Assembly: GCA_963813135.1 (NCBI GenBank)
Contig: CAWEXY010000010.1
Location: 89,905 to 153,904, forward strand
From: an uncultured Verrucomicrobiae bacterium
GTDB lineage: Bacteria; Chlamydiota; Chlamydiia; Chlamydiales; Rhabdochlamydiaceae
Length of the DNA: 64,000 nt
Reading direction: 5' to 3'
The notes under the pieces were generated by a model. The model was not told the DNA's origin. It did no database searches and was given only the letters and a program-made list of their open reading frames with translations. The translations under genes were made by a program, and so were the position numbers. Positions 41,735 through 62,400 of this stretch are shown here, piece after piece; position 1 is the first letter of the stretch, and each line of letters starts with the position of its first letter.

Positions 41735-41859
41735 AAAGGAACTGGTCGCAAGTAGATCTTCCGTTCGGATCCGACCAGCGGCTCTCGAGACAACCCCATC
41801 TCACGAGCTCCGGCGGACGAGTCCGCCTTAAGGACGGCCAGCCCGTTAGCCTCCGCTCC

Positions 41860-42939
41860 GTGAAGTTGTTCGCCTCCACCGCGAGCGTGCTGTCCCGCAG
41901 CGACGTCCTCTTCTTTTCAGGTGGCCTGATGATGACCGTTGCCAGCGGGGTAACGGCCCATGTGGACGTTGGACCGGTCGCGCCATTCGTGGTGTCTGCG
42001 GCCGCTCTGGCCGTGCTCGCTGCGGTGGTCGGCCGCTGCGTAGACCACCTTTCGGATCGCTTTGGACCCGGCGCCACCGGCCTTCTCCAGGCGGCTTTGG
42101 GCAACTTGCCCGAGTTGTTCTTTGCCATCTTCGCCCTTCGCGCCGGACTGGTCGTCGTTGTCCAAAGCGCCCTTGTGGGATCCATCCTGGCCAATGTGCT
42201 CCTGATCCTCGGCCTGGCCTTCGTCACGGGCGGTCTTCGACACGGCACCCAGCGATTCGCAGCGGAGAGCGCGCGCAGCGTCGCCCTTCTCCTGCTGCTG
42301 GCCGTGACCATTCTCTGCGTTCCCGGCATCACTGCCCACTTACACGTGGCTGCTACCCACCACGAGGCGACCCTGTCCACGGTGGCCTCGGTAGTGCTGT
42401 TAACCGTATTCGTCCTCTCGATCCCCTCGGCGATGAGCCATCAGGCTCCGGCACTGGACGAGGAAATCGACGGTACAGCCTGGCCCCTCGCACTCGTGCT
42501 CGGCGCCCTGATCGGGTCGAGTGTTGCGGCGGCATTCGTCTCAGACTGGTTCGTGACGGCATTGACCCCCGCGCTCTCGGCGCTCCACATGTCCGAGGCC
42601 TTCGCCGGACTGGTGGTCGTGGCGATTGCGGGCAATGCCGTGGAGAACGTCGTCGGTGTGCAACTGGCCGCCAAGAACAAGCCTGACTACGCGTTGGCCG
42701 TCATCCTGCGGAGTCCGATCGTGATCGCCTTCGCGCTGCTCCCGCTCCTCGTGCTCGTCTCGCCTGTGCTGGGAGGTGCCCGGCTGACTTTGGTCCTTCC
42801 GGCTGAGTTGCTGGTCGTACTGATTATCTCTGCCGTGATCACGGCGGTGGTGGTTTTCGATGGGGAGTCGACGTGGCTAGAAGGCTGTTGCCTCATCGGT
42901 CTCTATATCGTGATCGCCGCGGCGTTCTGGTGGGGTTGA
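41860..42939 (+). CDS. Calcium/proton exchanger (CAX/ChaA family)
   Basis: Alpha repeats GNLPELF..GSILANVLL and AIAGNAVEN, plus DGESTWLEG. Confidence 0.92.
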   Translation: MKLFASTASVLSRSDVLFFSGGLMMTVASGVTAHVDVGPVAPFVVSAAALAVLAAVVGRCVDHLSDRFGPGATGLLQAALGNLPELFFAIFALRAGLVVVVQSALVGSILANVLLILGLAFVTGGLRHGTQRFAAESARSVALLLLLAVTILCVPGITAHLHVAATHHEATLSTVASVVLLTVFVLSIPSAMSHQAPALDEEIDGTAWPLALVLGALIGSSVAAAFVSDWFVTALTPALSALHMSEAFAGLVVVAIAGNAVENVVGVQLAAKNKPDYALAVILRSPIVIAFALLPLLVLVSPVLGGARLTLVLPAELLVVLIISAVITAVVVFDGESTWLEGCCLIGLYIVIAAAFWWG

Positions 42940-43174
42940 CCTTCGCCGCAACAGCTACTTCAGGATATTTGACGCTCGGGCAATCACGAGAATGGCGAGC
43001 GATCCTGCGGCCTGAACCGCCATGGCCAACGTGGCCCAACGAGGCCTCGGTATCGCGTCGGTCGGCTGAACGCCGCGGGGTTGGCAGAGCCCAGATAGGC
43101 GTAGTCGAGAACTAGGATCCGCCTCGGGACCTCCCCCAAGTCAGAGCGAGAATATGCGCTCCTGGCGTGACGGT

Positions 43175-43897
43175 TCAGCAAATTCGCCGGGCGCTCAGCA
43201 CCATCAATCGGGGGATGAGGTCGGCGTTCACGAAGCCGCCCGTCTCGAGAAGAACGGCTGGGGGTGGCGAGGGCTCGACCATGTCCTCGAGGAGCAGTCC
43301 GACCTCGCCCATCGCGTGGACGTATCTGCTGAGGGGCCGGTGATGGAACGGTAGGGAGACCCCCGGTTCGACCTCGTCGATGACGAAATGGTCAGGCAAG
43401 TAGGAGCCGACTCGCCAATATTGCTCGTTCGATCCCGGGTCATCGACCCATCCACTACCGGGTGCTTGGAGGATCGGGTGAACCAACAACAAGAGAAATT
43501 GCCCATCCGGCACGAGGACCCGGGCGATCTCCTGGATCGCCGGCTCAAAGGGATCTATGTGCTCGAGAGCGAGGCACAGGACCACCGCTTCAAACGCGCC
43601 GTCACGAAAAGGGAGTTGCTCCCCTCCCGCTTGTACGTAGCACGGTAGTCCGCCACGAACGTGGGCTTCACGAATCTGCGATGGTGTCGGGTCGAGACCT
43701 ACGACGTGCGCGCCGCTCCGGGCGATGTACCGAGCGACCTGACCTTCTCCACACCCCACATCGAGCACACGACGTCCGCGTCGTAGATGCTTCTGGACCA
43801 GGGGAAGGATCTGTTCCTCATATTCGGGATCGGCACCTTCGGTGAACTTCCGCTGCCACCACCTCGAATGTTGCTCCCAGAGAGAACTGCTGTTCAC
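43175..43897 (-). CDS. Class I SAM-dependent methyltransferase
   Basis: VLDVGCGEG, LPFRDGAFE and ARVLVPDG. Confidence 0.9.
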   Translation of the reverse strand: MNSSSLWEQHSRWWQRKFTEGADPEYEEQILPLVQKHLRRGRRVLDVGCGEGQVARYIARSGAHVVGLDPTPSQIREAHVRGGLPCYVQAGGEQLPFRDGAFEAVVLCLALEHIDPFEPAIQEIARVLVPDGQFLLLLVHPILQAPGSGWVDDPGSNEQYWRVGSYLPDHFVIDEVEPGVSLPFHHRPLSRYVHAMGEVGLLLEDMVEPSPPPAVLLETGGFVNADLIPRLMVLSARRIC

Positions 43898-44300
43898 GGC
43901 CGCGAGGCTAGCTATCTTCCCCGGTCGTGCCAGGAGCTGTGTACCCCGGGAACCCGGGTCCCCCCGACGTGAACGGCGGACCAGGTCGCTGAGACCTGAT
44001 TTCCCAGACTTTTTGGAGAGGGTGCTCCTGGCCAGGTATTTTGTCGATCCGCCGGAGCAAAGTTTTTCGGGAGCCCTTGGTTGGTGGCTGGGGGGGGTGG
44101 GTTCCCGACAAAACTCTCTGACCTGGGACGAATGTCCTACCGCTCAACCCACTTCCCACGCTATTCACCTCGATTTCCCACCACCCCGACCAGGGCCTAC
44201 TCGCCAGTCGGATAGAAACGAAGGCATTCCATCGGAGATTTCGGACCACCTTGCCGCCCGCTCGGGCCACCCGGATTGGACCGAGCAGAAGCGGCGCGGG

Positions 44301-45368
44301 TCACGCGGGGAAGGACCCGGTGGTGCCCTGCACGGGATCGACGGAGGGAGCCGAAGGTGATCCAGGCTCGGGCCGCGGCGAGCCGCCGGTGATCCTCTTT
44401 CGGAAGACCCACAGACTCCACCCCTGGTACACGAGCACTACGGGGAAGAGGACAACGGCCACCACGGTCATCACCTTCAGCGTGTACGAGGGGCTGGCGG
44501 CGTTGGAGATCGTCAGGTTGTAGGTGGTGTTGGTGCTGGACACCATGACCCGTGGAAACAGCTCGAAGAAGATGGAGGCGACCACGCTCCCGATGGCCAC
44601 GGCGGCCGAGATGAAGGCCCAGCCTTCTGAGCGCGCCTCAGCCATCCAGGCTGCGGCGATCACTGCTGCCAGGGCCAGGGCTTCGATGGGCTTGGGAACG
44701 AAGCCCTGGCCGAGGCCCACGTGGATCCATGTCAGCCATCCGAAGGTGAGAAGGGTGGCGATCCATCCGAATCGGCCCGAGAGCATAGCCACCCGTTCGT
44801 GGAGCGGCCCGTCGGTCTTCAGGCTGAGGTACGCGGCGCCGAGGAAGAGGCAGAGGAACACCAGGGTCACCCCGGTGTACAGGCCGAAGGGGACCAGCAG
44901 GCCCCAGAATGATCCGGTGTAGTTGTGGGCCGAGTCGATAGGCAGCCCGTGGAGCATGTCGCCCCAGGCCGTGCCGAGTAGCAGGGGGATGAGGGCGCTG
45001 CCGATGGTCAGGGACCACCGCCACAGCGACCGCCACCTTGGATTGTCGATCTTCCGTTGGTACTCAAAGGAGACCCCCCGCATGATGAGAGCGAACAGGA
45101 CGATCACCAAGGCCAGGTAGAAGGTGGAGAACATGGTGGCGTACCACGAGGGGAAGGCAGCGAAGATGGCTGCCCCGCCCACGATCAACCACACTTCGTT
45201 GCCGTCCCAGATGGGGCCGATGCTGTTGACGGCGATGCGCCGCTCGGTTTCGTCGTGCCCCACGAAGGAGTGGAGCATGCCCACCCCGAAGTCGAAGCCT
45301 TCGAGCACGAAGAAACCCACCCAGAAGACGGCGACGATCACGAACCAGATGTCGTTCAGGTGCACCAT
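44301..45368 (-). CDS. cydB: Cytochrome bd ubiquinol oxidase subunit II
   Basis: LEGFDFGVG, IGPIWDGNEVWL, FAAFPSWY and RGVSFEY. Confidence 0.96.
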   Translation of the reverse strand: MVHLNDIWFVIVAVFWVGFFVLEGFDFGVGMLHSFVGHDETERRIAVNSIGPIWDGNEVWLIVGGAAIFAAFPSWYATMFSTFYLALVIVLFALIMRGVSFEYQRKIDNPRWRSLWRWSLTIGSALIPLLLGTAWGDMLHGLPIDSAHNYTGSFWGLLVPFGLYTGVTLVFLCLFLGAAYLSLKTDGPLHERVAMLSGRFGWIATLLTFGWLTWIHVGLGQGFVPKPIEALALAAVIAAAWMAEARSEGWAFISAAVAIGSVVASIFFELFPRVMVSSTNTTYNLTISNAASPSYTLKVMTVVAVVLFPVVLVYQGWSLWVFRKRITGGSPRPEPGSPSAPSVDPVQGTTGSFPA

Positions 45369-45377
45369 TGTGGTCTC

Positions 45378-46821
45378 CTAGTAAATAAGGGCCGGGACCC
45401 GGTCCTCATCGGGCTCGGCCGAGGAGGCGGGCGGGGAGTGATCGGAGTCAGTGTCGTGGCCGCTGGGGCCCTCGTGTGCGCCCGGTTCTAATTCCTGGCG
45501 GCCGTAGTGGATCATCAGATAGACGTCGGCCACCCCCAGAGAGAGGTACAAGAGCACAAAGGCAATAAGGCTGATCCACAGGTCGGTCGACGTCACCGAG
45601 GGCGAGGCGGCCTGGGACGTTTTCATCAGGCCCTGGACGATCCAGGGTTGGCGGCCACTCTCGGTCAGCAGCCAGCCAGCCGTGTTCATCAGAAACGGGG
45701 CGATGGCGAACCACGGAGCAATCAGGAGGAACCACTTCGCTTTGCCCAAGGTCTTGCGGCGGATGAGCCAGAGCCCCCACAGCGCGAACAGAGCAATGAG
45801 CGCGGCCAGATAGGCCATGACCCGCATCCCCCAGTACTGAATGAAGACGTTAGGAATGTAATTCCCTGGCCCGTACTCCTTCACATACTGCGCCTGCAGG
45901 TTGTTGAGGCCCTGGACCTCGCCGTCGGGGTGATTGGTGGCGAGGATCGAGAGAAGATCGGGTACCTCCCAGATCTGGGTGGGAGTCTCGTCGTTGTTCC
46001 CGCCACCGATCTGGAAAATGGAAAAGGCGCAGTGTGACGGGCAGGTGGTCCACAGAGCCTCGGCGGCAGCGATCTTCATCGGCTGGTATTTGCCCTCGAC
46101 CACCCCCCAACTCGCTCCCGATGAACATGTTGAGGAACACGGCCGGGGCGAGTACGGCCAACGAGATGATGGCGGTCCGGCGGAAGGCGCCGACGGAGCT
46201 CTTGCGCCTGAGGTGCCAGGCAGAGAAGGCCAGCATGATGATGGCCCCGGTGACCAGCGATGCCAAGATCACGTGCGGGTAGGCCCACAGGAACACCGGA
46301 TTGGTGAACAGCGCCCAGATGTCGGTAAGCACGGGCTGGTGTTGGGAGTTCATCACGTAGCCCACGGGGTGTTGCATCCACGAGTTCGCCGCCATGATGA
46401 ACAGGGCCGACAGCATGGTGGCACCCGCCACCAGCCAGATACAGGTCAGGTGCAGTTTCTTCGAGAGTCGGTCCCACCCGAAGATCCAAATGCCCAAGAA
46501 GGTGGATTCGAGGAAGAAGGCCGCGAGACCCTCCATGGCCAAGGGACCTCCGAAGATGTTGCCCACGAAGCGGGAGTAGTTCGACCAGTTCATTCCGAAC
46601 TCGAACTCTTGGACCAGCCCGGTTACGACGCCGATGGCCACGTTGATCAGCAGCAGGGTCCCGAAGAACTTCGTCAACCTCTTGAACGTGGGATTGTCGT
46701 TGCGATACCAGCTGGTCTGGAGCAGCGCGACCAGGAACGCCAGTCCGATGGTCACCGGCACGAAGAGGAAGTGGTAGATGCTGGTGGTGGCGAACTGCCA
46801 TCGGGCGAGGTCGGTGCTCAT
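45378..46821 (-). CDS. cydA: Cytochrome bd ubiquinol oxidase subunit I (frameshift near 46105)
   Basis: LARWQFA..HFLFVP, GVVTG..EFEFGMNW, FFLESTF, NSWMQHP, QPMKIAAAE and GWLLTESGRQPW. Confidence 0.96.
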
Positions 46822-47374
46822 GGGGTGGGTCTCCCGTCGGGGTCCGGTGCGGTCATGGTCTAGTACCGGGTTCCTCGTGCGTAGTAGAGATGTCGCGGGC
46901 CTAGATGGTCAGGGTGATGGCACAGACCCTCAGTGCAGTCGGTGTCACGCGGCGCTCCACGGGATTTTGTCTCGGATTGAATCGGTGGCGCGATGGGCTG
47001 GGGTTCCCGACCACTCGGCACCCAGGCGCACCGCCGCCCTATCACCGGCACAGTGTGGTGACGGCCCTTTACATTGCCCCGTTCTACGTCCAGGACGCAT
47101 AGCAGCTGACTCTAACTGTTGAGGCGGGCGGCTGGGAAGATTGGCCTGCTCCCATTTGTGTGGAGTACTGACCCCGTTGACACGGCGAGCAGGCTTGGAG
47201 AGTGCCACTGGCAATCGATGTTTGCCGCGCGTACGCTGATGACGCAGGCGGTTTGGGTGCCGTGATCCCGACCCGTCAGGGACCCGAGTAGGAATGATCC
47301 GCAATCCGATCGGCCCAATAACAGTTCGCTCTGACATGCAGTCCTGGTGGAATGACTCAGCAAAGGAGACCCAA

Positions 47375-48757
47375 ATGAGCACGCCCGATTTCTCTCAGTT
47401 GGTCGCCGACCAGAGGGCCTATTTCATTTCGGGAGCCACCCGATCGGTGGATTGGCGCGTCGCTCAGCTCACTGCCATTAAGACGATGATCTCTGAGAAT
47501 CGCGAGGCCCTCTATGACGCGCTGTGGCACGACCTTCGCCGGAACCGCTACGACGCTGATCTCATGGACGTCGAATACAACATCAAAGAAGCGCAGTACG
47601 CGCTCGACCACCTCCACGAGTGGATGAAGCCCAAGCACGTGCACACGCCTCTGGTCATGGAGCCAGGTCACATCCGGGTGCGACGTGATCCGTTGGGCGT
47701 CACACTCATCATCGGAGCGTGGAACGAACCCCTGATGTTGACCCTCGCCCCCTTGGTGGCAGCTATTGCCGCCGGCAACACGGCGGTGATCAAGCCGTCG
47801 GAGGTCTCCGAGGCGACTTCGGCCGTCCAGGCTCAAATCATTCCGAAGTACTTAGATACCCAGGCGATCGCCGTAGCCGAAGGCGGAGTACCCGAAACCA
47901 CCGCGTTGTTGGATCAAAAGTGGGACATGATCTTCTTCACTGGGAGCCCGCAGATCGGCAAGATTGTTCACCAGGCCGCGGCGAAGAACCTCACACCGGC
48001 CGTGCTCGAACTGGGCGGCAAGAACCCGACCATCGTTCACTCCTCTGCCAATATCCGCTCGGCGGCACGCCGTATTGCCTTCAGCCGTTTCATCAACTCG
48101 GGCCATATATGCACCGCCCCGGACCACGTACTGGTCTGGCCGGAAGTGAAGGACGAGTTCGTTGATGAGATGAAAAGGGCCATCACCGACTTTTACGGGG
48201 AAGATCCCAAGCAGAGCCCCGACTACGGGCGAGTGATCAACGACCGATCTTATGAGCGCCTCATGGGCTATATGGACAGCGGGACGGTGGCCATCGGCGG
48301 CATCGGCGGACCCCACCGAGCGCTACATCGCCCCCACTGTCTTAGTGGACGTGGCGGTCGACTCGCCGATCATGCAAGACGAGGTCTTCGGGCCGATCAT
48401 TCCGGTGCTCGAGATCGAGTCGGTCGAGGCGGTCATCGACTGGGTCAACAGCCATCCCCGCCCGCTCGGGCTGTACGTCTTCGCTGAGGATGAGGCTGTC
48501 GCCGAACACATCCTCGAACGCACCGGGTCCGGGGACGCCGCGTCAACGACTGCTCGATCCACCCCTGATGCCCGAGCTTCCCTTCGGCGGGGTGGGAACT
48601 CGGGGATGGGCAAATACCACGGGCACTGGGGCTTCGAGGCCTTCACCAATGCCCGTGGTGTGCTGTACCACGGCGCCAAACTCGACCCGGCGTGAAGTAC
48701 CCGCCCTATTCGGAGCACGAGCGACTCCATGGGATCATCGCCAAACTGATGCCGTAA
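47375..48757 (+). CDS. Aldehyde dehydrogenase (ALDH3-like), frameshifted
   Basis: PLGVTLIIGAWN, AAGN..IKPSE, FFTGS, LELGGKNP, NSGHICTAPD, EVFGP and PFGGVG.SGMG.YHG. Confidence 0.92.
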
Positions 48758-48802
48758 CTCGACGATTCGTAGAACGCACCACATCGGAGAGCGAGGAGCC
48801 TG

Positions 48803-50200
48803 TTGAGCAAAGACGTGCAGGCCCACCGCGTTGTCGTTGTCGGTGGAGGTTTCGGGGGCCTGCCGGCGTGCCGGATCCTCGGTGGCGAGAAAGGGGTCGA
48901 CGTCACCCTGCTCGACCGCCGCAACCATCACCTCTTCCAGCCACTCTTGTATCACGTCGCGACCGGCATTCTGTCCGAAGGCGAGATCGCCATTCCCTTC
49001 CGGCACGTGGTCCTGCGGCGTTCCCCAAACGTGAAGGTCGAGCTGGCCGAGGTGACCGGCTTCGATCTCGAGCGCGGATCGTCACGCCAAGAGCCCCTTC
49101 CACGATCCGGTCGAGGTCCCCTACGACAGCCTGATCGTCGCTGCCGGTGTCAACCAGTCCTACTTCGGTCACGACGACCTCGCGTTCTTCGCGCCGGCAT
49201 GAAGACGCTCGACGACGCGCTCGAGCTCCGGCGCCGCATCTTTGGGGCCTTTGAAATGGCCGAGGTGACGACCGACGCAGCGGAGAAGAAGGCCTGGCTG
49301 ACATTCGTGGTAGTGGGAGCCGGACCCACCGGGGTCGAGCTGGCCGGGCAGATACGAGAGCTGGCCGTGCGGAGTCTCAAGCAACTTCCGCACCTTCGAA
49401 GCCTCATCGGTCCGGGTGCTCCTTCTCGACGGGGCAAGGAGCCACTGGCCACCTTCGGCGACAAGCTCTCGGGCGAGGCGACAAAGATGTTGGAGCACCT
49501 AGGCGTCGAGCTGAAGATGGGTCTCGGGTAACTCACATCGACGCCCACGGCGTCGTCGTCGAAACCGAGAAGGGCAACGAACACATTGAGGCGCGCGTCG
49601 GTTGTGTGGGCCGCCGGTGTCCAGGCCTCACCGCTGGCGGGCATGCTGGCCCAGGCGAGCGGGGCCGAGGGACCGGCGGCAGGATCGCGACGCTTCCCGA
49701 CCTGACCTCCCGGCCATCCCGAGGTGTTCGCCGTCGGCGACATGGTCGCGCTCAACGGCCTCCCCGGTGTGGCCGAGGTGGCACTGCAGGGCAGCCTCCA
49801 CGCGCGAACACGATCAAGCGGCGGCTCAAGGGCAAGGACACCAAGCCCTACAAGTACCGGGATCTCGGCAGCATCGCCGCCATAGGCCGATTTAAGGCCA
49901 TCTGTCAGCGTCAAGGGCCTCCGCCTGAGAGGGTTCCCGGCCTGGGTGGTGTGGCTCTTCGTGCATATAGCCTTCACCAACGGTTTCGGTAATCGACTCT
50001 CGGATCTGTGGACTGGTTTTGGGCCATGGTCGGCCGGACCGGCCAGAACAGCATCTTCAGCGTTGCCCATACCGGAGGCGATCTGAGCACGCCCGAGACT
50101 GTGCGCTCGATCATCCAGCCGACGCCCTTCCCGGCGGTCGGCGCTGAGCCTGCGGCGCCCCCGGAAGCGCCTGAGCGCCCCGGCCTCTCCGAGTCGAGAG
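48803..50200 (+). CDS. ndh: Type II NADH dehydrogenase (NAD(P)/FAD oxidoreductase), several frameshifts; end approximate
   Basis: VVVVGGGFGG, NHHLFQPLLY, VVVGAGPTGVELAG, WAAGV and YKYRDLGS.A.IGR. Confidence 0.88.
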
Positions 50201-50206
50201 TCATCC

Positions 50207-52185
50207 GTGTACCGCCAGATTCGCCCGGTTCGTGGTGCTGCTCGTCCTCCTCGTGGGCGCTCTCCAAACCGGCACGATGGTCGCGGAGGCGACACCGGAC
50301 CTGGAGAGATCCCGCTGATCGGTACGGTCACCGCTGGTGGTCAGCCACTGAGCGGCGCAACGGTGACGCTTTATGCCGGTAATAGTCAAGGGGTATCGCC
50401 TCTGGGGAGAACCACGACCGGGTCGAATGGCGGATTCTCCATCACCTACGCCCCGCCGACCCTGGGCGTGCTCTATGTGGACACCCAGGGTGGGACGCCC
50501 GCCAAGGGCACGATCCCAGTGTCGAGCGCACTGAGGCTCCTTTCGATTGTCGGCGTGCGTGGCGACGCCGGGGTATCAGCGCAGACGCTGTCCACGGTGA
50601 CCGTCAACGAGCTGACCACCGTTGCCACGACGTATGCGTTGCCCAGTTCCTGTCACCGGTCGGCATCTCGGGCCCGAGCCCCGGGCTTGAGAACGCCGCC
50701 GCCACAACCTTCAACCTGGTCAATCCCGCTAGCGGCCAGGCCGGAGCCGTCATCACCGACGCCGACAACGGATGTCAGAACGACACCTTGGCTACCCTCA
50801 ACTCCGTTGCCAATCTGGTGGCGCTGTGTACCAGCCCGTCGGGTCGCGGCGGGTGTAGCCAGCTGCTTCGTTCGGCCACCCCGCCTGGCGCGACAACTCC
50901 GACCAACACCGTGATCGCGGTGCAAAACCTCGTAAAGAATCCCACCTTGTCGACGGGCAAACTCTTCGCGTTAGCCAGAAGGTCGAGCGTCTACAGCCCC
51001 GCCCTGAGAACTCCTCCGGGAGCGTGGATTCTGGCGTTGCTCTACACCGCAAACGCCCTCTACGCTCCCGGTCGCACCGTCATCGATGCCGCTGGCAATG
51101 CCTGGTCCGGCAACAACTGGGTGCCTGGGACGACGACGCCCTCGACGCAGGCAACGGCACTCAACCCCCTAGGCAGCCCCCTCTCGATCAGTCCCGTCAG
51201 CGGAGGCGGTCTTGAGGGGCCCGCGTGGGGAACGGCTGTAGCCCCGAACGGGTCGCTTTGGTTCACCAGCTTCGGAGGCAATGCGGTTGCCGAGTTCGCC
51301 TCCAATGGGATTCCCCTGTCGCCGAGCTCGGGCTGGAGCAACGGGGGCATCAATCATCCTCAGGGTGTCGCCGTCGACCAGAAGGGCAACATCTGGATCG
51401 CCAACAGCTTCGGACCGACGAGCGCACCCGGTCAGGGCGACGTCGTCGTCTACCCGGACGGCAACCCGGCGAAGGCCATCACCATCACCGGAGGGGGACT
51501 CAATCACCCATTTGCCATCCAGATCGACAGCGACGGACGGGCGTGGGTTGACAACGCCGGCCTCGGGGGCGCAAAGCTCGTCGGGACCAAGGCGGCGGTC
51601 CTGATCGGAAAGGCCAGCGGTAGTGTGACCGTCATCGGGTCGAACTTCAAACCCACGTCGTTCTCACCCATCCAGAGCAGTTCCTTCAAGTTTCCTCTCG
51701 GCCTCGCCCTCGACTCGGCGGGGAACTCATGGGTTGTGAGTTTCGACAACAGTTCCGTTATCGAAATTCACCCCAGTGGAACGGTCGCCCGGACGGTACA
51801 TCTCCCCGGCCCCGTGTTGCCATGGGCGGATGCCGTCGACGGCTCCAACCGGGTATGGGTGACCGGCTTCACCCGGCCGGGGGTCTGGCTCCTCTGCGGC
51901 GTGAACACCGCGGCCTGCGGTCCGGGTTCGTCGACCGGTAGTCTCCTTTCGCCCAAGTTGGGATTCCGAAGCAAAGCGATGCAACATCTCACATCGGTGC
52001 AGATCGACCAGTCCGGCGATGTTTGGCTGAGCAACAACTGGTCCAAGATTGTGCCACCGACTGGTGGTAATGGTGTTGTCGAGATGATCGGCATGGCGAC
52101 ACCGGTGTGCACACCGTTGATTGGTGCTCCCGTCCGGCCGACCACGACGGCTTCTTGCGCAGGTAGGGCAACCGGATCAGGCTGA
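50207..52185 (+). CDS. Secreted NHL/Vgb-like beta-propeller protein, frameshifted near the 5' end
   Basis: Repeats P.G+A+D..GN.W+.N and VNELTTVA; N-terminal hydrophobic segment. Confidence 0.75.
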
Positions 52186-52281
52186 ATCTCCCTAGTCGGG
52201 GATTGTCAATCCAGCGCAAGATGATGGTTTGGTTCGGGCGACGAGAAGCATCGGGCGAAGGTGAAGCGCCGGTCGCTGTAC

Positions 52282-52551
52282 TGAAGGGCACCAGTAATAC
52301 GATCGGGCAATTGACCTGGACGTTCGCCAGCGGACTGAGACATCATCAGGTGTGCTCTTCTCGCTCCTCTATCTCGGCTTGTGTCGCATGTTCGGTTTCG
52401 TTGCCACGTCTCGACGGACCGAGTCCGAGCGGGACGTGGAAATCATGGTGCTCCGGCACCAGGTCCGTGTTCTCACACGCCAGCTTCACGGTCGTGCTAC
52501 GTATCGGCGAGCGGATCGCGCAATCTGCGATCGGGATTTTGGTGCCCTTCA
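52282..52551 (+). mobile_element. Internally deleted IS (rve/integrase-core, IS481/IS3-like) remnant with both terminal inverted repeats
   Basis: TGAAGGGCACCAGTAATACGATCG at the left end and CGATCGGGATTTTGGTGCCCTTCA at the right end. They enclose the N-terminus MLFSLLYL..RDVEIMVLRHQVRVL.RQ..DRA, typical of actinobacterial integrase-core transposases. Confidence 0.7.
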
Positions 52552-52590
52552 CCCAGGCTCTAGAGGTTGTCTGGCTTGGGGCCGCTCAGC

Positions 52591-53932
52591 TCACGACATC
52601 GTGTAGCGATCGATCCCTTGAGCGTCGCCCATGCCGCTGGCGGGAGCACATACGGCGCAACCTTCAGATCGCTCTACGTTTTGCACCACGATGCGATTCG
52701 CCAGGAGGTCATAACGGAAGAAAGGAACCACGGCCCGAACCCCAGTTACATAGGCGAGTACTTCAGTCATCGCCAGGCCAACCAGAACAGTGTTCAATGG
52801 CATTAAAGCTGGCTCGATCGTTCTATCCCGCGCATAACCTCGCTCCATCCGAATCGCGCGGTGCCGCGTCGGTCTCGAGATCTTCTGCCGCTTCGGCGAA
52901 GTCGATTTCGTCGGCGCATGCAAGGCACGGACCTCCAGCAGTGTAGAACGCAACTCGCCCGCCTATCTCAGGTCGATCATCCTCCTTATCAATTCCAACC
53001 CCAATATCGATGTAGGGAATGAGGTGCGCGGCAGCAAGTTCCGTAAGGACAAGTCGAGCTCCGTCGTTATCGACGCACCCGACTATGAGATCAACACTCG
53101 CGAGGGACTTCAGCGCATCCGAAGCTCGCAGATTGCCGACCGTCTGCAGTCGAAGATCTCGCCGCAAGCGACGGGCTTGCCGCAGAGCGACAGCAGTCTT
53201 CTTTCTGTGAAGAAGCGCGTCCCACCAAGTCGCTCCTGACAGACGTGGAAGGTTTGACCATTCAACGGTATCGTCATCGAGAAGTACTAGTTCCGCCACG
53301 CCGAGATGAGCAAGCTGCTGTGCAACTTGGCTGCCAGTCCCACCCAAACCCACAACAGCTACCTTCAAGGTCGATAGGCCCCTTTGGCCCTCCGCCCCAA
53401 GTGCTCGTATTTGTCGATCGTAGATGGTGGCAGCGGAGGTATTCGGCGCCTGGACGCTCCGCGCCCAGGGCGGAATTTTCACCCTCTCGCCGATGGGTCG
53501 AAGCTCAAGATCATCAAAGGAATCGCCATTCCAGGCTCGGCCGGCGTAGCCAGCGGTTCCGATCACAAGTGACCCAAAAGTTCGGCCCGGCAGCTTGTTG
53601 CAGAAGTATCGAGCGAATATTGGAAGTTGTAACTCGTCAAATTCCGAGAATCGCACGTCACCACGCGAGAAGGGATGTGTGTGCACCTCGACGAGACCGC
53701 AGCCGCTCCTCTTGATGTCGGCAAGACCATCAAGTTGTGCCGACTCTGTCAGCGTGAGTTCGCCGAACTCTCCGGCTGCCAGTTCCGACCTTTGGAATAT
53801 TCGTTGAGCTCGGAGCACCCAATTGCTGCCCGATTCGTGAACTGAAAGAAAGGCGGCCCCTTCTTCGGGCGACGACGCAAGAAGCTCTCTGGTAAGGGTC
53901 TCCAAGCTTTCTGCCGGAACTAGGAGTTGCAT
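52591..53932 (-). CDS. JAB/JAMM peptidase - ThiF/E1 adenylyltransferase fusion (BubCD-like), frameshift near 52860
   Basis: N-terminal EEG..EVHTHP..FSEFD (JAMM). Then YDRQ, VVGLGGTGS, DDDTVEWSNLPR, GCVDN and PCLAC. The shifted frame gives RGY..PLNTV..CAVC. The ATG overlaps the E2 stop (TAATG). Confidence 0.88.
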
Positions 53933-54336
53933 TAATTGCACCCCCGAGCCAAGAAAGACTCGACCGATGACACGTAGCCCACAAAGTTGTCGCCGCGCTG
54001 AGGATCCGAGGTGGCGCGCCAGGTCGACTGCCCGACAGCATCAATTAGGTGGAAAGAGACCAACAACCAACCGGGCATTCCCAGTGGAGCACCGTCACTG
54101 GCTGGCAATGGCGAGGCAGTCATCTGTAGGCCAACGGGCACAAGAAACCCATCGGGACCAATTGCTCGATAACCTGGCGGCACAATGACGGCGAGTGGCG
54201 TTCGAGCCAGGTTGTACAGTCCGGGCAGTAGATCTACTGACAGCTCAACTCGCTCCGGAATCCCGAGGCTCTGAGCATCGGGATAGACACAGACAATGTC
54301 CTGCCATTCCTCGGCTAGGCGTGGGTGCATGGTCAT
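53932..54336 (-). CDS. Prokaryotic E2/UBC-like protein (Prok-E2 family E, BubB-like)
   Basis: LPGLYN..+AVIVPPGY...PDGF and W...SFH...W...D pattern; it lies between the Ubl and E1 genes with coupled stop/start codons. Confidence 0.75.
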   Translation of the reverse strand: MTMHPRLAEEWQDIVCVYPDAQSLGIPERVELSVDLLPGLYNLARTPLAVIVPPGYRAIGPDGFLVPVGLQMTASPLPASDGAPLGMPGWLLVSFHLIDAVGQSTWRATSDPQRGDNFVGYVSSVESFLARGCN

Positions 54337-54566
54337 CCTCGGCGGAAGCGGACCGAGACGAAGAAATTGTCTCCTTCGTGAGGCCGAACCTCCTTTGTTG
54401 GCGGAATCGCCGTCTCCGAACCATCCGGCTCCTCCCTCACGAGCTTGTCCTTCTCAGGAATTCCAGCGAACGAGCGAAGCTCAGTCCCTGTGTACTCACG
54501 ATTTTGGAGGTCGTATGGCTTTCCTTCAATGGTTACCTGAATCGTGGACGTTGCGGTGGTGGTCAT
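54333..54566 (-). CDS. Ubiquitin-like (multi-ubiquitin domain) protein, 77 aa, C-terminal RRG (BubA-like)
   Basis: IQVTIEGKPY..YTGTELRSFAGI..L..E...I....V....GDNF matches the Multi_ubiq pattern. It has a GGAGG RBS, and its TGA overlaps the E2 ATG. Confidence 0.82.
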   Translation of the reverse strand: MTTTATSTIQVTIEGKPYDLQNREYTGTELRSFAGIPEKDKLVREEPDGSETAIPPTKEVRPHEGDNFFVSVRFRRG

Positions 54567-54578
54567 TTCTGTTGCCTC

Positions 54579-54593
54579 CGAACATGTGTTCGA
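54579..54593. promoter_or_regulatory. LexA SOS box (Gram-positive/actinobacterial type)
   Basis: CGAAC-ATGT-GTTCG(A); the minus strand reads TCGAACACATGTTCGG and abuts the Ubl RBS. Confidence 0.8.
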
Positions 54594-54644
54594 TACAGTT
54601 TCATCATGTTCTGGATAATAGTGTATCATGAAAGGGTGCTCACG

Positions 54645-55823
54645 GTGACAGGCGGAGGAACGGACCTCGGTCAGAGGCTGGCAAAGGCTCGTGACCAGGT
54701 CGGACTCACCCAAGAGGAGGTTGCGCTGCTGGTTCGTCAGCCCCGCCCCGTTATCTCGAACTGGGAACAGGGTGAACGTCTGCCAAATGAGCAACAGCTC
54801 AGCAAGCTCGCTGTTATCTATCGAATGCCCCTCGAGCATCTACTGGGCTCGATTGAACACCCTCGTGCTGAGTTTGAGCAGTTGTTCTTTCGAGATGCCG
54901 GCAACCGCCTCAATGGTGAGGCGAAGTATCAGATTCAGCGATTTCTAGGATTCTTGGATGATTATGGAGCGTTTCTAGCGGCGCTTGGTGAGCAACCAGG
55001 CCTGATGGAACCCCCCCTTGCATTGCGAGAGGGTCGTTATACAAAAGACGATGTCCGGCGAAAGGCTGAGGAGGCCCGCTCCTTCTTTCGGCTTGGAAAT
55101 GGTCCGGTTGGCGACCTCACTGCGTTGGCCGACATTTTTGGTATCTCCGTTTACCTTGCTCCATTGGGTCGCTCGCTCACGGACACCGTTTCCGGAGCTC
55201 ACTGATCCATCCAGAGGTCGGCTTCTCAGTGCTGATCAATGGTCAAACCACTCCGGGGAGGCGTCAATTCACCCTCGCCCATGAACTGGGACACGCGCTG
55301 TTCCACCGTGGTTCCGTGGAAGTCAGCTTCCCTGGGCGACGCGAGGCTAACGAGCGGTTTGCCGATGAGTTCGCGGGTGAATTTCCAGTACCCGCAGACA
55401 GTCTTCAGACGACGGTCGAGCACTTGAGGCTTGAAAGAGTCGCGGATCCCGAGACGGTCATCCACTTGCAGAGGTATTTCAACGTCTCATACGAGATGAT
55501 CCTTAATCGGCTCCGTTTTGCTGGACTCATGTCTAACAAGGAGTTTGAACAGTGTCGGAGCGTCCACCCGTCTACTTGGCCGAGCAGTTGGGATGCCGGA
55601 CTCACATTGATGAATGGATGCAGGACCCGGAACGATGGGGCCTGGGACGATACCCAAGACGGTTTCTTCGTCTTCTCAGACGAGCGTTTTCGGAGGAACT
55701 CATAACCGTCTCGGGTGCGGCAACGATGACGGCCTCGCGGTGGAGGACATTGAGGAACTTCTCCGAGATGTATCGATTACCTCCAACGGGAACGAATATG
55801 ACGACTTCGACGCCACCTCCTGA
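54645..55823 (+). CDS. XRE-family HTH fused to an ImmA/IrrE zinc metallopeptidase (three frameshifts)
   Basis: LGQRLAKARDQVGLTQEEVA..ISNWEQGERLP, then SVLIN..RRQFTLAHELGH..ERFADEFAGE and YFNVS. Confidence 0.88.
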
Positions 55824-56411
55824 GACCTTTCTTTCAACACACACCAACGCGATACTTCGCGGTTACAGGACAAATGGATCTGCTTGCAACCATTTGCTCG
55901 CGGCACCATTCGAGTTCCACGATTGGTCTTTGACGATGAAGACGATTTAACGGGTCCGCCCGACCTCCTAAGCGAGATCGGCGCTTCGGAGCAGTACTGG
56001 GCGAAGCGAGCCAGAGAGCGGAGGCAGCAGAATACTGGCTGCGCCTCGGCAATCTTCGGAGCAGAACTGTGAGCATCCCTAGTTGACATGGAACTTACAG
56101 AACTCGAGAGATACGCCGAACTTGTGAGTCGCAATGTGCAACAGCGCTTTCGACTCGCTGCCAAACTCGGACGTGGGGAAGCTGCAGTTATAGCCATCGC
56201 AGAGGAGCGCGAATGGGTCGCCGTCATAGACGACTGGGAGGGTCGGATGGTTCTTCAGGAACTCAGCCCATCGACGAGATCCATAACCACCCGCGACTTC
56301 CTCAGGGCTGCCGTATTTGAGCAGGTTATCGACACTGGTGCCGCTGGTAGAATTTATCGAGCGATGCTCGAGGCGGGTTATCGAGGACCTTCGAATCTTT
56401 CGTTGGACTGA
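55798..56411 (+). CDS. PIN-domain protein (DUF3368-like), frameshifted
   Basis: N-terminal ..PTRYFAVTGQMDLL..IRVPRLVF in shifted frames; C-terminal LGRGEAAVIAIAE....VIDD..GR. Confidence 0.72.
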
Positions 56412-56607
56412 AAGGAGCCATGCCAACATCTCACCTTCAGTCCGCTCTTCACCGTTTGATCGTACGCCAGGCTGTATCGCACGGAATAGATCGATGGGCC
56501 AGTGCCTGGGTTTGGGCCCGGTCAATTCGCGAGGGCTTCTACTCGCGCGGCGACTGCCAGCGCATCGCCCTCCTGTGATCTCGTTGTCAAAGTCGGTGAA
56601 TCTGTCC

Positions 56608-57089
56608 ATGGTTGTGGTACCCAATGCCCCCGGTTCTGGCAATCCCCCCGCAGCCGGCGGCGCAGGGCTCCCATTCTGCGGGTTCAACCCGGCCTGGGCC
56701 AGCGAGCCGATCCTTTTGCAGGGGAAGGTTCAACAAGGACTACGGAGGGATCGTCCTCTTTGGGCCGTGTCCTCGATGTGGACATGGCGACGGATCAACC
56801 TGTTCATTCCGACCACCTGGGCGACGACGACGAGCATCGGTTCGCCCGGCGTTCACTTCGTCAGTGCGGCAGCTATGGGTATCCTCGGGCCCAGTCCACG
56901 AAGGGTCGTCCAGTGGCTTGGGCCTGACTAACGGAGCACGGACCTGAAGCGAGGGCGGGTGCGGTCGTCGAGATCGCCGTGTGCCGATGCGGCAAGGACC
57001 ACGAACACCAACCACCGTCGGGCAAGTCGGGCTGCGGTTTTTGGACCTATGTCCACTTGGAGAAGGGAACGATCCCCGGTGGCGAGTGA
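56608..57089 (+). CDS. Small Cys/His-rich putative metal-binding protein, frameshifted
   Basis: GPCPRCGH and VCRCGKDH..P.GKSGCG motifs across shifted frames; the stop overlaps the next start. Confidence 0.6.
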
Positions 57090-57693
57090 GCAGGACAAGG
57101 CCCTCTATTGGGCGGGGAAGGCCGCCGATGTGCACCACAACATGCTGGACACCGTCCAAGCCTCGGCCGGAAAGTGGCAAGCGGCGATCGCTGCGTTCCT
57201 CGGTGCCTATGCCACCGTCGGCTTCGTGGTGGGACGACCACGATCGCCTACCTTCCGCCGTCGGGATGGAAATACGTCATCTTGGCCGTGCTGGGATTGG
57301 CTGCCGCCATCGCCGTGGTCGCCGTGGTTACGCCAACCGGGCTGCCGAGGGGTTTCCCAAAGTGGAGCAGGACTTCCCCCTTACTGGACCCCAGATGGCA
57401 GCGAACGCGCTCGCCGGAGCCAAACAGTCACGCCGACTTCTCCGAAAGGCCGATCGTGGCTGCCGCAATTGCCGGTCGTCCTCGCCGTCTCGGGGTCCTT
57501 CGGCATATTGGCTTACGGACTTACCGCCTCTGCACCCGCACTGACTGCTCTCCTAACCACGCACTCCGCGTCGTACTGCGGAACACTGCAGACCAACAGT
57601 GATGGCACGGTGTCGCTACTGTTATCCAACGGGAAACAGGTTCGTGCCAAGGGTGGAACCATCACGATCGTCACCTCTTGCGGCGGATCGTGA
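57079..57693 (+). CDS. Hypothetical 3-TM membrane protein, frameshifted
   Basis: VQASAGKWQAAIAAFLG, further TM segments and a C-terminal YCGTL..VTSC domain. Confidence 0.6.
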   Translation: MASEQDKALYWAGKAADVHHNMLDTVQASAGKWQAAIAAFLGAYATVGFVVGRPRSPTFRRRDGNTSSWPCWDWLPPSPWSPWLRQPGCRGVSQSGAGLPPYWTPDGSERARRSQTVTPTSPKGRSWLPQLPVVLAVSGSFGILAYGLTASAPALTALLTTHSASYCGTLQTNSDGTVSLLLSNGKQVRAKGGTITIVTSCGGS

Positions 57694-57767
57694 CCGATAG
57701 GGTCCTCCGATCACTTGGCAAACCACGCGCCTACTCCGCGGTGAGCTTGGGGAACTCACAAATCCAG

Positions 57768-59056
57768 CTATTGGTAGGTCAAGAGCTCCATGCGGTCAAA
57801 GGACAAGAGATCGGTGACCAAATGCTCAGATAAGTTCGCTTCTGTTTCCGGGCGAATATAGGGAACAACGCTCACGGTGAATGTGGCGCCGGGCTCAACC
57901 AACTTTCGGAGCTTCTCGGTGACAATGACCGTTTCGCTTATCCGGGTTAACTGATGCTCTGGGGCGCAGATCGAACGGGCGACGCCGGGTAGGGACCTCG
58001 CAGTGTCCTTCGTTGCCGGCACCCCCCGTGACCGAAAACCCAAAACGATCCGACGTAGCGGTTCTCGTCATCGGTAGGAGTCGCTCTGGACCGACCTCGG
58101 GATCTGTTCACAAACGAGCCGACCCTCGAAGCTAGCCCGTGAATGATCCAATCCGAAAAGCACCAGATCCGCCCTCTTGTACTCCTCGACAGGGCACTGC
58201 AATGTAACCGTCAACGGCCTTGATGCAACTTCGACCAATTTCGATCCTCCCTACCCCCGGTGTTCCCGAACTGGAGAACGCCGCGTACTGATATCCAGAG
58301 TGTAGCGATGTCGGAGCGTCTGTCCAACGTCGAAAGTGTCGGAAATCGACCAAGAGGCGTATCCAATGGCACCACGCCGACCCCGGCTCCGGGATGTGCT
58401 TTTGCTGCCAGAGGTACCAGATGCGATCGAGGTCGTGGTGTGATCGGGCCCAAAAGATCGGATCGAAGCTGCCAGTCGGATCATGTCCATCGTGCCGCCC
58501 ACCCAGACGTGAATCTGATTGTGTACCGACTCCAGTTCAGTCGTGAAATCCACGAAAATCGGCAGAGATCGATGATTGACGACACCCGCTCGGGCTTCGG
58601 CAACGTAGAAGATCTCCCGGCGTCCGATATGTGGTGTCGACTTGGGGAAGGCCTTGTCCTGTCATTGAGTCGTTCCTGGTACGCCCGTGAATCGGTGTTC
58701 AGAGCAGGGGGTTGTAGTGCAGTCACTCGAAGTGGGTTCCGTGGTATTCTGTGGGAGAGCCGCTGTGCCGACCGAGTCCCACCACGGCAAACTGGACGCT
58801 CGGTTCTTGATCGAGAAGATCTGCTCGTTACGTAGTAGGGGTATGCCCGGTGCCACGGCAAGAACAATGGGCTTCGGTGCATGTATGAAATCAGGAGGGG
58901 AGAGCTCCATGCTCTGCCGGCCCAGTGCTCATGGCCCTGTCGTCCGAGAGAGCGAGCATCTTCGAAATACCAGACCGCAAAGCTCGCGGTTTCTGCTGCC
59001 GTGAGGGCAGTGACGCTCTTCCGTGTCCGCATCAAGGCGGGAGTCGTCTTGCTCAC
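57768..59056 (-). CDS. Tyrosinase-family (type-3 copper) protein, heavily frameshifted
   Basis: RKSVTALT, H..PLFLPWHRAY, LPWWD, ESVHNQIHVWVGGTM, and AAFDPIFW..H..DRIWYLWQ in a shifted frame. Confidence 0.8.
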
Positions 59057-59699
59057 CGCTCAGAGGAGCCCCAGTCGGTAGCGGAGACCCGTCGGATGCA
59101 GGCTCGTCGATAACCATGTCCACCGGAGTACGAGGCCAGCGTCGCCTCGGCAAGGGGACTCGCCGAACCGTAGTCGTGGGGATGGTCGAGGCAGAAATTG
59201 CCGTCCGCCGTAAGTCGATTTCCAGCGACAGGAACCGACTCGGACGTCGCGTCATCGTGGATCGTCATCATGAGATTGGAAGACCTGATCGCCTCTGTCG
59301 CAGCCGTCGTCGGCGTCTGCTGTACTGCTCGCTTTCTACGGCGTCCCCGGTGTAACAGCCGACGTTTTCGAAGGGATCGGGAAAGCCAGCGTGGCATTGG
59401 CACAATCGGCTGAAGTTGAGCCGGACGAGGTTGTCGCGACAACGTAGTAATACCGCTGGTTTCCGGGCGACTGCCACACCACCAGCTCCGGCGTCGTACT
59501 GATGGCCGAGGATGAAGCGAGTTCGGGTGACTGGTTCGCGGTTAGCGAGACAACTGAGGGCGTGATCGTTTTGCACCACCAACGCAGTCGATCAACCCGG
59601 CCACGGTTGCTCCCGGGAAACGGCGGCCTCCAGCCCCGTTGGTTCAGTCGTCGAGGTCGAGACGCTCGGCGGGGGGAGGCAAAGGCGCCGCACGGCCCT

Positions 59700-61217
59700 C
59701 CATTCGCACGGACGGTGTCGCTACCACGCAGAGCATGACGCTCTGGGTGCGCGGAGCTGGCGCAGACCCGGGCGCCGTGGTGCTTTCGATAGCGGCCGGG
59801 TCTCAGGCTCGACGCACCCGACGATGGACGGAGCCAATCGCAGAAGGAGAGGTCCCACTTCCGCTGTTCCTCCGGACACCCGTCGCTCCTGCGCCGAGAA
59901 CTCCGACGGGCGCGATGGTCGGTGGTCGTCGTAGTGGGCCGGGCACTCGACGCAAGGGGCCCGAACCATAACGTTCGTCGTCATCGAGGTGGTCGTCGTC
60001 GATGGAGCGGCGGGGGCGGCGTACTGGATGGCAGAGGGGCACCGTCCAAGGCGTTTACCATCCCGGGGTCGGTTCGCTCCATGCCGAGGGCCCAAAGACC
60101 CGGTCCACGTAGTCCGTGCCGCGGTCGGCGAGGTCGGCGATCAGGTACAGCGATGTGGGTCATCGAAGAGCGCCTCGTGCCACTGGGTGCCGACCTGGTA
60201 CGCCGTCCACACGGAGTTCGTCAGCCGGATCCCGGTCGAGCGGGTGCCCACCACCATGATTTGGCTATCGGTCTATGTCGAGTCGCAGGTCTCCCGAGGC
60301 CGTGGCGGTCAGTGTGTTTCCGGTGGTTGGCCAATCCTCCCCGTACAGGGGGGCACCCAAGATCACCTGTCGCCTGGCAAGGCGGCGGCGTACTGCTCGG
60401 CCGTGGTGAGATCGCTGAAGAGCGACGAGGTGAGCGGGAACTGGCCTGTGCTCGGGCGGCGACGTTCGGGGAGTACTCCGTGACGAAGAAGGCATCGACG
60501 GCACCCGCCCGGGCGGAGATATCGTAGAGGCCCCCGGGGTCGCCCGCCGAGGAGGCGTACGTGTCCATCGTCACCTGCCGATGCGCATTGACGCCATGGA
60601 GGGTGTCGAGACCGCCGTCACCCGGGCCATCAAGCCGGCCTGGTCGGCATGCCCGCTCCCTCGAGGTCGAGATTCACGCCGTCGAGGCTCTTCGCCTCGA
60701 TCGCCCCGACGAGCGCCTCCGACAATGTGACGGCGGCGGCTGGGTTCGAGGTCGACGCATCGAGCGAGCGCTGGTCGAGTCGTTCACGTCCAAACAACCC
60801 ACTTGCCCGCGGCGTGGACTCGGGAGATCAAGATGGAGAGCGCCTGGCTCTCGTACCCGTCCAGCCCGGACCGGACTCGTTCAAGGATCCGTCGGCGTTG
60901 ATTCCGACGGAGAAATAGGCGAGTGTCGTCAAGCCGGCCACATCGAATGCAGCGCTTTAGTCCCAGACTCCGATCGGGGGCGAACCCGAAGACCTCGTGT
61001 GGGGACAGGGGAGCAGCAGCGGCCGCCGACGCCGGAGCGGTACAGGAGGAGGCGGCGGATTCAAGGACGGGTGCCTTCCAAGTAACCCGGTCCCCGGAAT
61101 TGGGGCGATCAGGCATTGCCGACTTTGCCTGAGACTGGTGTATGCTTTCGAACTAGCAGCGGCAACAGTGAAGAGTGCGAGAGTGCGCGCCAGGGCGAGC
61201 ACTGAGACAGCGACCAT
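59700..61217 (-). CDS. Glycoside hydrolase family 18 protein, heavily frameshifted; 3' end approximate
   Basis: Signal-like N-terminus, HEVFGFAP, YFSVGINADGS, catalytic LDGVNLDLEG (~60660-60687), VDAFFV.EY and VILGAPLYG.DW. Confidence 0.7.
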
Positions 61218-62360
61218 GGTATTGCGCCATGTCGCGCTTTAAGATGATGGATCGGATACTTACTGCTCCAATGCGGCACCTAGGACGGACATGGTCAACT
61301 CCTCATAAAGAGAGCGGCAAGCGCCTGGCCCAGTTACCGAAGTGCCGGCGCTTTTGCAGGTCGTCGGCAAACAGTCAGCGAGCATTTCGAATCGATCCCG
61401 AGACTGTAAAAAATGGGGATCTCAGGAAGAATCGCCACTCGGTCCTGGATAGTCCGCACGCAGAACGTACGGAGGGATGAACCGTCTGAAGGATCGGCAA
61501 TCCACACACGTGCCGCTTCTTGCGAGAGCAGCTACGTGCACTTCGACGAGATGGTCACCGCTATGACGTGATCGTCCTCGCGTCTCCGACGCTCTTCGAG
61601 CAGCGTACGTTTCGAAACGACCTCCCCCGGACGCTTCACCAACGAAACCAGCAGTCGGAATTCGATCAGTATCAGCAAAGAGTTCGACTTCGCCGGACCA
61701 CGCCTAATGTCCACGAACATCAACGACCAGGTCCCCGGCTCGGAGATTCGACACTGCGACTGTAAGCCCGTCGCCGTATAGCCACCTGTAGGTGGACGGC
61801 CAATGCGTCCATGTTGTAGGTCCAAGGCCAACAGATTCGGGCCCGGCTTGGAGCACCTCGTGCATGAGGTGACGTCACCTTCAAAACCGGTGACGACGAT
61901 CATCATACGCTAATCGAAACTCGCGAAGAGGCCAAGAGATCGAGGCCACCGTGCGTTGCCCGCATCGGCCACATGCACACGACGCCGTCGGGGACATGCT
62001 CATGCATCCGGTGAAACACCTTCGTACTCGAGCTGGCCACAACCACGTTGAAATCCCAGGCCCCCATACGTTCAGGAGCACTGACACGACGAAGCATCAG
62101 ACCCGAAAATAAGCAAACGAGCGCTGGCGTTTCTTCTCGGTCGGCGCCATGATTGGCCATCGTTGACGGTCCCGACGCCGATTGCCGCGACTTGAACAAA
62201 TCTTGCAAGTTCCCCTCTTGTTCCTTGAAAGTCGTGGCCCTCACACTGCGAATAGTCGAGCTGCTCTCAGTGAGCACTTCTACGAAGGGCTGTGGAGGGA
62301 ACATGGGACGGAGCACGAAGCGGGCACACACAAACGTCAAGCGAATTCGTGGACTAGTCA

Positions 62361-62393
62361 CGTGAAGAAGTACTCGGAATCGTCAAGAAGTAG
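62361..62393 (+). CDS. groES: C-terminal remnant of co-chaperonin GroES at the junction
   Basis: REEVLGIVKK-stop directly upstream of groEL. Confidence 0.65.
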   Translation, partial: REEVLGIVKK

Positions 62394-62400
62394 GAGCGGC

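Follow-up and report, generated by a model that had tools for sequence, protein, structure and literature searches.

The leader of a small operon for ubiquitin-like conjugation raises the question of whether a palindrome directly before its first gene is an operator for the SOS repressor LexA and, if so, in whose cell this control would operate. A preliminary description of the window, by which we mean the whole analysed stretch of 64,000 nucleotides from the assembly G000, had claimed that the conjugation system is wired directly into the SOS regulon of its host. We consider it likely, with a probability of about 0.72, that the palindrome is a LexA operator, which would repress a Bub-type operon in an Acidimicrobiia-like host and would be one of two predicted DNA-damage locks on this operon.

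The palindrome and the genes around it

The palindrome core, CGAACATGTGTTCG, has the form CGAAC-N4-GTTCG, and the 16-mer that includes it reads TCGAACACATGTTCGG on the minus strand (coordinates in Table 1). Its described position, overlapping the GGAGG of the Ubl gene and past a TACACT hexamer, was verified in the window sequence: the last G of the core is the first G of the ribosome binding site (RBS), 12 nt lie between the core and the Ubl ATG (54566), and the hexamer, with a TG upstream of it, occupies 54625-54620 on the minus strand. The box is predicted to lie at about +21 to +35 of the Ubl transcript, and in the box-bearing homologous leaders G is mostly kept at offsets 53-54. The bare palindrome match is only modestly rare: when the 64-kb window was shuffled 100 times, nine of the shuffles contained a perfect core (mean 0.09). 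In the 1.83-Mb assembly the window site is the one perfect copy and also the highest LexA-matrix score.

Table 1. Features of the control region, the module and the surrounding segment, in positions of the window.
Feature	Position	Strand	Basis or remark
LexA (SOS) box, actinobacterial type, predicted	54578..54593 (core 54579-54592)		matrix score and conservation in homologues
Inverted repeat, right arm GAnnnTGTAnCR, predicted HTH-M78 operator	54591..54602		GTA and C invariant in 23/23
Inverted repeat, left arm TGnTACAnnnTC	54617..54628		holds extended -10 TG-A-TACACT of the Ubl promoter
Ubl RBS GGAGG	54575..54579	-	first G common to box core
Regulator -10 TATCAT, predicted	54624..54629	+	overlaps opposite -10; in-frame start codon 6 nt downstream
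Ubl, BubA-like, 77 aa, single beta-grasp domain, ends RRG	54333..54566	-	Multi_ubiq, weak, E 0.006
E2, BubB-like, 134 aa	53932..54336	-	best PDB hit Citrobacter BubB, E 0.011
JAB-E1 fusion, BubCD-like	52591..53941	-	JAMM motif HTH..S..D, ERGY tyrosine; frame break near 52861
HTH(XRE)-M78 fusion, CapH-CapP/RmrA/VapB52-like	54636..55823	+	FR motif, HExxH; breaks near 55199, 55563, 55730
PIN-like (DUF3368-like) protein	55798..56411	+	PDC-S70; breaks between about 55835 and 56079
Foreign high-GC (about 56-66%) segment, Acidimicrobiia-like, carries module	39850..62400 (approximate boundaries)		GC, Markov comparison, matches

The genes are those named in the preliminary description, with a weak Multi_ubiq match for the Ubl, a JAB and ThiF fusion, a fusion of HTH_3 and Peptidase_M78, and Prok-E2_E labels for the E2 family. 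Residues D62, S94 and H96 of the E2 are invariant in 35 sequences and by their spacing probably correspond to the Asp/Ser/His of Bub (D299/S333/H335), the PDB alignment spanning residues 37-82 only. The intact JAB-E1 protein of locus L004 has Citrobacter BubCD as its best PDB hit (E 4e-24), and the tyrosine of the crossover-loop ERGY aligns with the same motif in BubCD. Conjugation of the Ubl is predicted to proceed through Tyr and Ser oxyesters as in Bub. Besides the Bub Ser-His pair, the E2 alignment also has an invariant C-terminal cysteine (C133).

The operon resembles Type I Bub (BubAB-BubCD-BubE of Citrobacter), as described in extracts of PMC11601596, in the JAB-E1 fusion with its crossover-loop Tyr, in the Asp/Ser/His of the E2 and in a beta-grasp Ubl ending in Gly. 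Unlike Type I Bub, it has Ubl and E2 as separate genes, an already Gly-ended Ubl and a LexA box in the leader, and BubE/DUF6527 (PF20137) was found in 0 of the four genomes searched, which are incomplete MAGs. The Ubl ends with RRG-stop in the window and in 21/23 loci. In L034 and L037 this stop is missing by frameshift or by read-through towards E2, which may be an error or a BubAB-like fusion.

The divergent HTH-M78 regulator is one frame of 397 aa in L004 and lies in pieces in the window; it gives RmrA hits in PADLOC and its best PDB hit is 9vzy (E 1e-7), which is taken to be VapB52 from length and chain count. The PIN-like protein is the probable bacterial toxin partner, as assigned from motifs and Atlas neighbours only; searches of Pfam and PDB with the intact L004 copy gave no hit. 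Relative to L004 the window module has several frame breaks, which fit low-coverage long reads and are probably sequencing errors, possibly decay. Right past the operon lies a short ORF (52352-52606) with no Pfam hit, which we liken to a fragment of an insertion sequence or integrase; the distant Bub-like locus L070 is flanked by a similar one.

Origin of the segment and LexA of related hosts

The assembly G000 has a GC content of ~48%, and the eight source-named hits of its Ffh comprise four from Rhabdochlamydiaceae/Chlamydiales/Chlamydiae, three from Verrucomicrobia and one from Melainabacteria; we read it as a chlamydial MAG. No LexA DNA-binding domain was found in this assembly, and one was found in 1 of 36 genomes of the same family. 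A candidate for a LexA encoded by G000 itself has a UmuD-like S24 peptidase domain only, without the DNA-binding domain, and was rejected.

At 40 kb of the window the GC content changes from ~50% to ~60%, and the Markov comparison turns Acidimicrobiia-like there too. In 60 relatives the matches listed, which leave aside 71 weaker ones, end at ~39,855, bar one short weak hit, and to the right of this point the DNA is 70-79% identical to the Acidimicrobiaceae MAG G001 over cydAB, a dehydrogenase gene and the whole module. The housekeeping genes of the segment are syntenic with the Acidimicrobiaceae genome, and the final 1.6 kb of the window hold a groEL that is 96% identical to a Terracidiphilus protein, its sole taxon-named hit. 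The order at the contig end (window 39850-64000) is chlamydial DNA, ~22 kb of Acidimicrobiia-like DNA and an acidobacterial-like groEL fragment. The sequencing runs listed are four DNA runs of one study with small shares, and no RNA run is among them. Contigs from these four runs have short identical pieces in the high-GC part, none is listed across the 39.85-kb junction, and they neither bridge nor disprove it. The listed contamination of the MAG is 1.9%, and the Markov scan marks other contig ends (C20, C25, C12) as likewise foreign.

The segment does sit on a contig of G000 (C10) and might be a true horizontal acquisition by a chlamydial genome, in which the box would be inert without LexA. 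But three phyla in succession at one contig end, housekeeping genes with Acidimicrobiaceae synteny followed by a Terracidiphilus-like groEL, and the common end of the matches listed in relatives speak against it, and we give this reading, even when pooled with that of a chance match of the motif, hardly any credence. The contig end is most likely a chimera with mis-joined Acidimicrobiia-like DNA, as judged from composition and matches. The claimed wiring is not supported for G000, in which no LexA DNA-binding domain was found; as the contig end is most likely chimeric, “host SOS regulon” must mean that of an unassembled Acidimicrobiia-like actinobacterium. With this, ~24 kb of foreign DNA are flagged in a GTDB chlamydial genome, which would else be read as a chlamydial ubiquitin system. 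A partial copy of the window E2, 99% identical, is recorded on another contig, of 106,645 bp, from which the genuine surroundings of the gene might be learnt.

The named hosts of the closest loci are G001, G002 and G003. All three have full lexA genes with CGAAC-N4-GTTCG boxes upstream of them, and in these hosts counts of the perfect motif and its reversed control were 18 vs 4, 15 vs 2 and 12 vs 5, with perfect boxes preceding recA, ruvC, a dinB-type polymerase gene, SRAP and nrdR. With G517 as a fourth host checked for lexA, a LexA using the CGAAC-type motif is encoded in 4/4 homologue hosts, whereas G000 is without one, and CAAAC, the commonest variant of the box, is present at the lexA promoters of the same four. 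The LexA matrix was built from 17 sites at SOS promoters of three actinobacterial hosts, seeded with perfect or one-mismatch sites at recognised SOS genes and not by motif discovery. With this matrix the window site scores 22.2 bits (training sites 18.0-24.3) and ranks first of 7984 positions.

This is in line with actinobacterial LexA regulons as described in extracts of two studies, which report the consensus TCGAAC-N4-GTTCGA with up to three mismatches tolerated in M. tuberculosis (PMC3381160), tCGAAC-N4-GNNCGa in S. venezuelae (PMC9380542), and boxes at or near start codons. The present case differs in its target, as there is no ubiquitin-like operon among the LexA targets described in these extracts. 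In Acidimicrobiaceae a LexA box overlaps the start codon of ruvC (L060, L082, L085; G001, G002), a parallel from these hosts for a box located where translation starts.

Conservation of the box among homologous leaders

The subfamily is carried by three GTDB loci and 36 metagenome loci; after removal of five loci without a leader and 12 duplicates, 23 distinct leaders remained, the window included. Many of these homologues are close kin from soil metagenomes, and the check for lexA covers four hosts. Samples of genomes contained the subfamily in 1/401 of the class (G001 itself) and 1/301 of the family, and a phylum sample of 401 genomes, searched with a different model, had G517 as one further carrier. 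Viral contigs gave no locus for the E2 alignment and none for the leader pattern, and plasmids gave no E2 match.

A scan of the leaders with the LexA matrix, the check suggested in the preliminary description, found the motif present rather than absent: at offset 36 from the anchor 16/23 leaders exceed 5 bits, a threshold that none passes at the other offsets between 20 and 49. The box is the best matrix site of the entire locus (1.3-11 kb) in 14 of the 16 box-bearing loci. Mismatches to the 14-mer number zero in three boxes, one in two, two in ten and three in one; the perfect 14-mer is carried by three lineages, and the weakest boxes (6-9.5 bits) are those of L005, L013 and L027. GTTC is invariant in 16/16 boxes and the 4-nt spacer occurs in ten forms. 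Among representatives of seven lineages, GTTC (identity 1.0) and the free left half (0.71) are better kept than the spacer (0.45) and the neighbouring DNA (0.32). When the box positions were refilled from each leader's own bases, at most one locus passed in 2000 trials, a null that ignores kinship. The box is at the identical offset also in L091, a locus that was found later and is closely related to one known lineage. The palindrome is beyond chance because of its position and its conservation in homologues; the perfect cores in the shuffled windows could be taken to favour a chance match, but the positional conservation rules it out.

Box-bearing loci lie on five deep branches and the seven box-less loci in two groups, with two changes on the tree, whose deep support is weak and in which gain and loss of the box are indistinguishable. 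As 7/23 leaders are without the box, it is not essential to the module. In L035 and L038 the leader is ~11 bp shorter, with the Ubl start at offset 51-52 vs about 62-66, which would fit a clean deletion of the box or leaders that never gained it. Seven distant Bub-like loci (L067-L070, L089, L090, L092) reach top matrix scores of 3.2-7.8, and only L089 has a weak site (6.1) in its leader; with scores this low, the box cannot be taken as a general feature of actinobacterial Bub operons. In L089, where a small HTH gene runs divergently from the Bub-like operon, the LexA-like site (L089:2098-2145, genome G431; 6.1 bits) has one perfect half and lies directly past an extended -10.

The main live rival is that LexA binds the box with little regulatory weight, so that HTH-M78 alone would set expression and the box would fine-tune it or decay. 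We hold this to be unlikely, though well ahead of the other alternatives. Two clades lost the box or never had it, and most copies are degenerate (11/16 with two or three mismatches); furthermore, in the extracts of published work compared here, CapH/CapP-type pairs suffice elsewhere for damage induction, and LexA binding without apparent regulation exists in M. tuberculosis (PMC3381160), e.g. at the LexA peak of Rv2517c. An invariant GTTC and exact spacing over five branches, amid flanks of ~0.3 identity, together with the perfect 14-mer in three lineages, argue against a box of little weight and for the LexA operator.

The palindrome could also act as an RNA hairpin that hides the RBS or protects the 5' end of the mRNA, its likeness to a LexA site being coincidental. 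Indeed, the window copy gives a fold of -6.9 kcal/mol, with a loop of 4 nt, immediately before AGG, and GC-rich hairpins (-5.9 to -12.7 kcal/mol) are found there or nearby in box-less L012, L034, L037 and L043. Against this, the second pair is an A-C mismatch without compensation in 12/16 boxes, a two-sided change is found at no pair, and 12/16 of the stretches from box-bearing leaders have folds of just -0.4 to -3.8 kcal/mol, which makes the hairpin quite improbable as compared with the LexA operator. The palindromes of box-less L012, L034, L037, L039 and L043 are unrelated, GC-rich and placed just before the RBS (-3.2 to -12.7 kcal/mol). Such leaders possibly switched from LexA control to an RNA hairpin, or belong to hosts with a different LexA motif.

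A predicted second operator and a possible two-repressor design

All 23 leaders contain, at fixed spacing, the inverted repeat TGnTACAnnnTC-N14-GAnnnTGTAnCR, which is more conserved than the LexA box (23/23 vs 16/23 leaders). Its left arm was used as the anchor and the right arm is the independent part; in the left arm TG, TACA and the last T of the hexamer are invariant in 23/23, TACA having belonged to the anchor. The arms are 31 bp apart within a divergent control region of 80 bp, and the right arm overlaps the box core by 2 bp. In each of five genomes the repeat stands at the module; elsewhere a genome has one match at most, which does not exceed the reversed control.

The preliminary description had named the neighbouring XRE (HTH-M78) protein as an alternative ligand of the palindrome. 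This protein is the obvious local repressor, encoded 43 bp away, and such proteins control adjacent operons according to extracts of the literature. However, its recognition helix is identical in L038 and almost identical in L035, both of which lack the palindrome and keep the repeat; a different sequence, the inverted repeat of 23/23 leaders, co-varies with the helix; and the palindrome fits the motif at the lexA, recA and ruvC promoters of the hosts. Loci with a Pro-to-Gln change in the helix have T/A arm bases in 4/4 cases vs 0/18 of the others, in two separate lineages, and strict co-variation of the variable base of the repeat was sought and not found, the base being complementary in 12/23. 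Because the inverted repeat tracks the HTH helix, it is the more likely XRE operator, and binding of the XRE protein to the palindrome appears very improbable.

The base common to box and repeat is A in 12/16 boxes and G in four, and G in 0/7 box-less leaders. An A fits the repeat and a G fits LexA, and we read CAAAC as a compromise between both. The conservation of the left C and of the purine of the box is thus in part also that of the repeat. The in-frame start of the regulator lies 6-9 nt past TAnCAT in 21/23 leaders, and its mRNA is probably leaderless because the start is so close to the -10. Transcription is predicted to begin near 54612-54613 on the minus strand and, for the regulator, at 54636 on the plus strand. 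A single 10-bp word, ATGnTACAnT, encodes the overlapping -10 elements for both directions. A generic sigma-70 scan gave a weak plus-strand site alone, which was not adopted as a promoter.

The claim of SOS wiring stands in part. The palindrome behaves as a functional LexA box, with fixed offset, free spacer and variants at the lexA promoters of the hosts, but it is optional, abuts a more conserved local operator and is probably half of a two-repressor design. By analogy with known systems, the HTH-M78 protein would bind the inverted repeat and cover both -10 elements, thereby repressing its own gene and the Ubl operon. As in CapP/CapH and VapB52, the protein would cleave itself at the FR motif in response to single-stranded DNA, and would thereby also release the PIN partner. 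LexA of the host, bound at the predicted position past the Ubl start of transcription, would block the Ubl transcript until RecA-stimulated cleavage, so that full expression of Ubl, E2 and JAB/E1 would need both repressors cut.

This design has published relatives in the extracts compared here. Controllers of CBASS, Bil and Bub operons of the CapH+CapP type (bioRxiv 2022.04.27.489752; PMC10557695; PMC13373217) likewise pair a divergent XRE-HTH and an M78 peptidase at a common promoter region; fusions of CapH and CapP are reported, one of them beside a vapC-like gene (bioRxiv 2022.04.27.489752; PMC10557695). Here, unlike there, the predicted local operator adjoins an operator for the LexA of the host. 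VapB52-VapC52 of M. tuberculosis (PMC13273310) and RmrA of RosmerTA share the HTH-M78 protein with FR and HExxH followed by a PIN-like gene, whereas the pair described here is divergent from a ubiquitin-like operon and predicted to control it. Self-cleavage on ssDNA is reported for VapB52 (PMC13273310) and for CapP/CapH (bioRxiv 2022.04.27.489752). At Caulobacter higBA (PMC13384398), LexA and a locally encoded repressor act together on a horizontally acquired module, but the LexA motif and the effector are different, and in place of a peptidase that senses ssDNA the local repressor there is a simple antitoxin.

The preliminary description had regarded the regulatory link as new. This applies to the LexA route alone, since damage control of Bub and Bil operons is already published via CapH+CapP, CapW and CapK+CapS: according to extracts, 168/544 Bub operons come with CapH+CapP, 43 with a CapW-type factor (PMC11601596) and 59 with CapK+CapS (PMC13373217). 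In the literature covered, with final journal versions, supplements and most subscription papers outside its scope, no LexA box was found on a Bub or Bil operon, and “LexA” has 0 occurrences in PMC11601596, PMC10557695, PMC11601603, PMC13373217 and the CapH/CapP preprint. The box would add a fourth route, via a global host regulator, to the three published local DNA-damage controllers. It also says when to look, as Ubl conjugates would be expected to appear in an actinobacterial host once RecA-dependent damage has occurred, and each operator can be mutated without the other.

As a tentative extension, to which we would give appreciably less than even odds, the BubE-less Bub subfamily of soil Actinomycetota may have a two-key AND gate within 80 bp, in which a self-cleaving ssDNA sensor-repressor, bound to the inverted repeat of three helical turns, and LexA, bound to the overlapping box, must both be cut. 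If true, ssDNA alone would release the PIN toxin and the ubiquitin-like machinery would appear only in a full RecA-dependent SOS response, which would place Bub conjugation in an SOS or prophage-induction programme and not in defence against lytic phages. Such a gate would account for the absent phage protection by Bub operons in E. coli; in extracts of the defining Bub paper (PMC11601596) no phage protection was seen.

The M. tuberculosis LexA ChIP peak at Rv2517c, for which extracts of the source report no known damage induction, lies two locus numbers upstream of the HTH-M78/PIN pair Rv2515c-Rv2514c and is perhaps a parallel link between LexA and such a pair.
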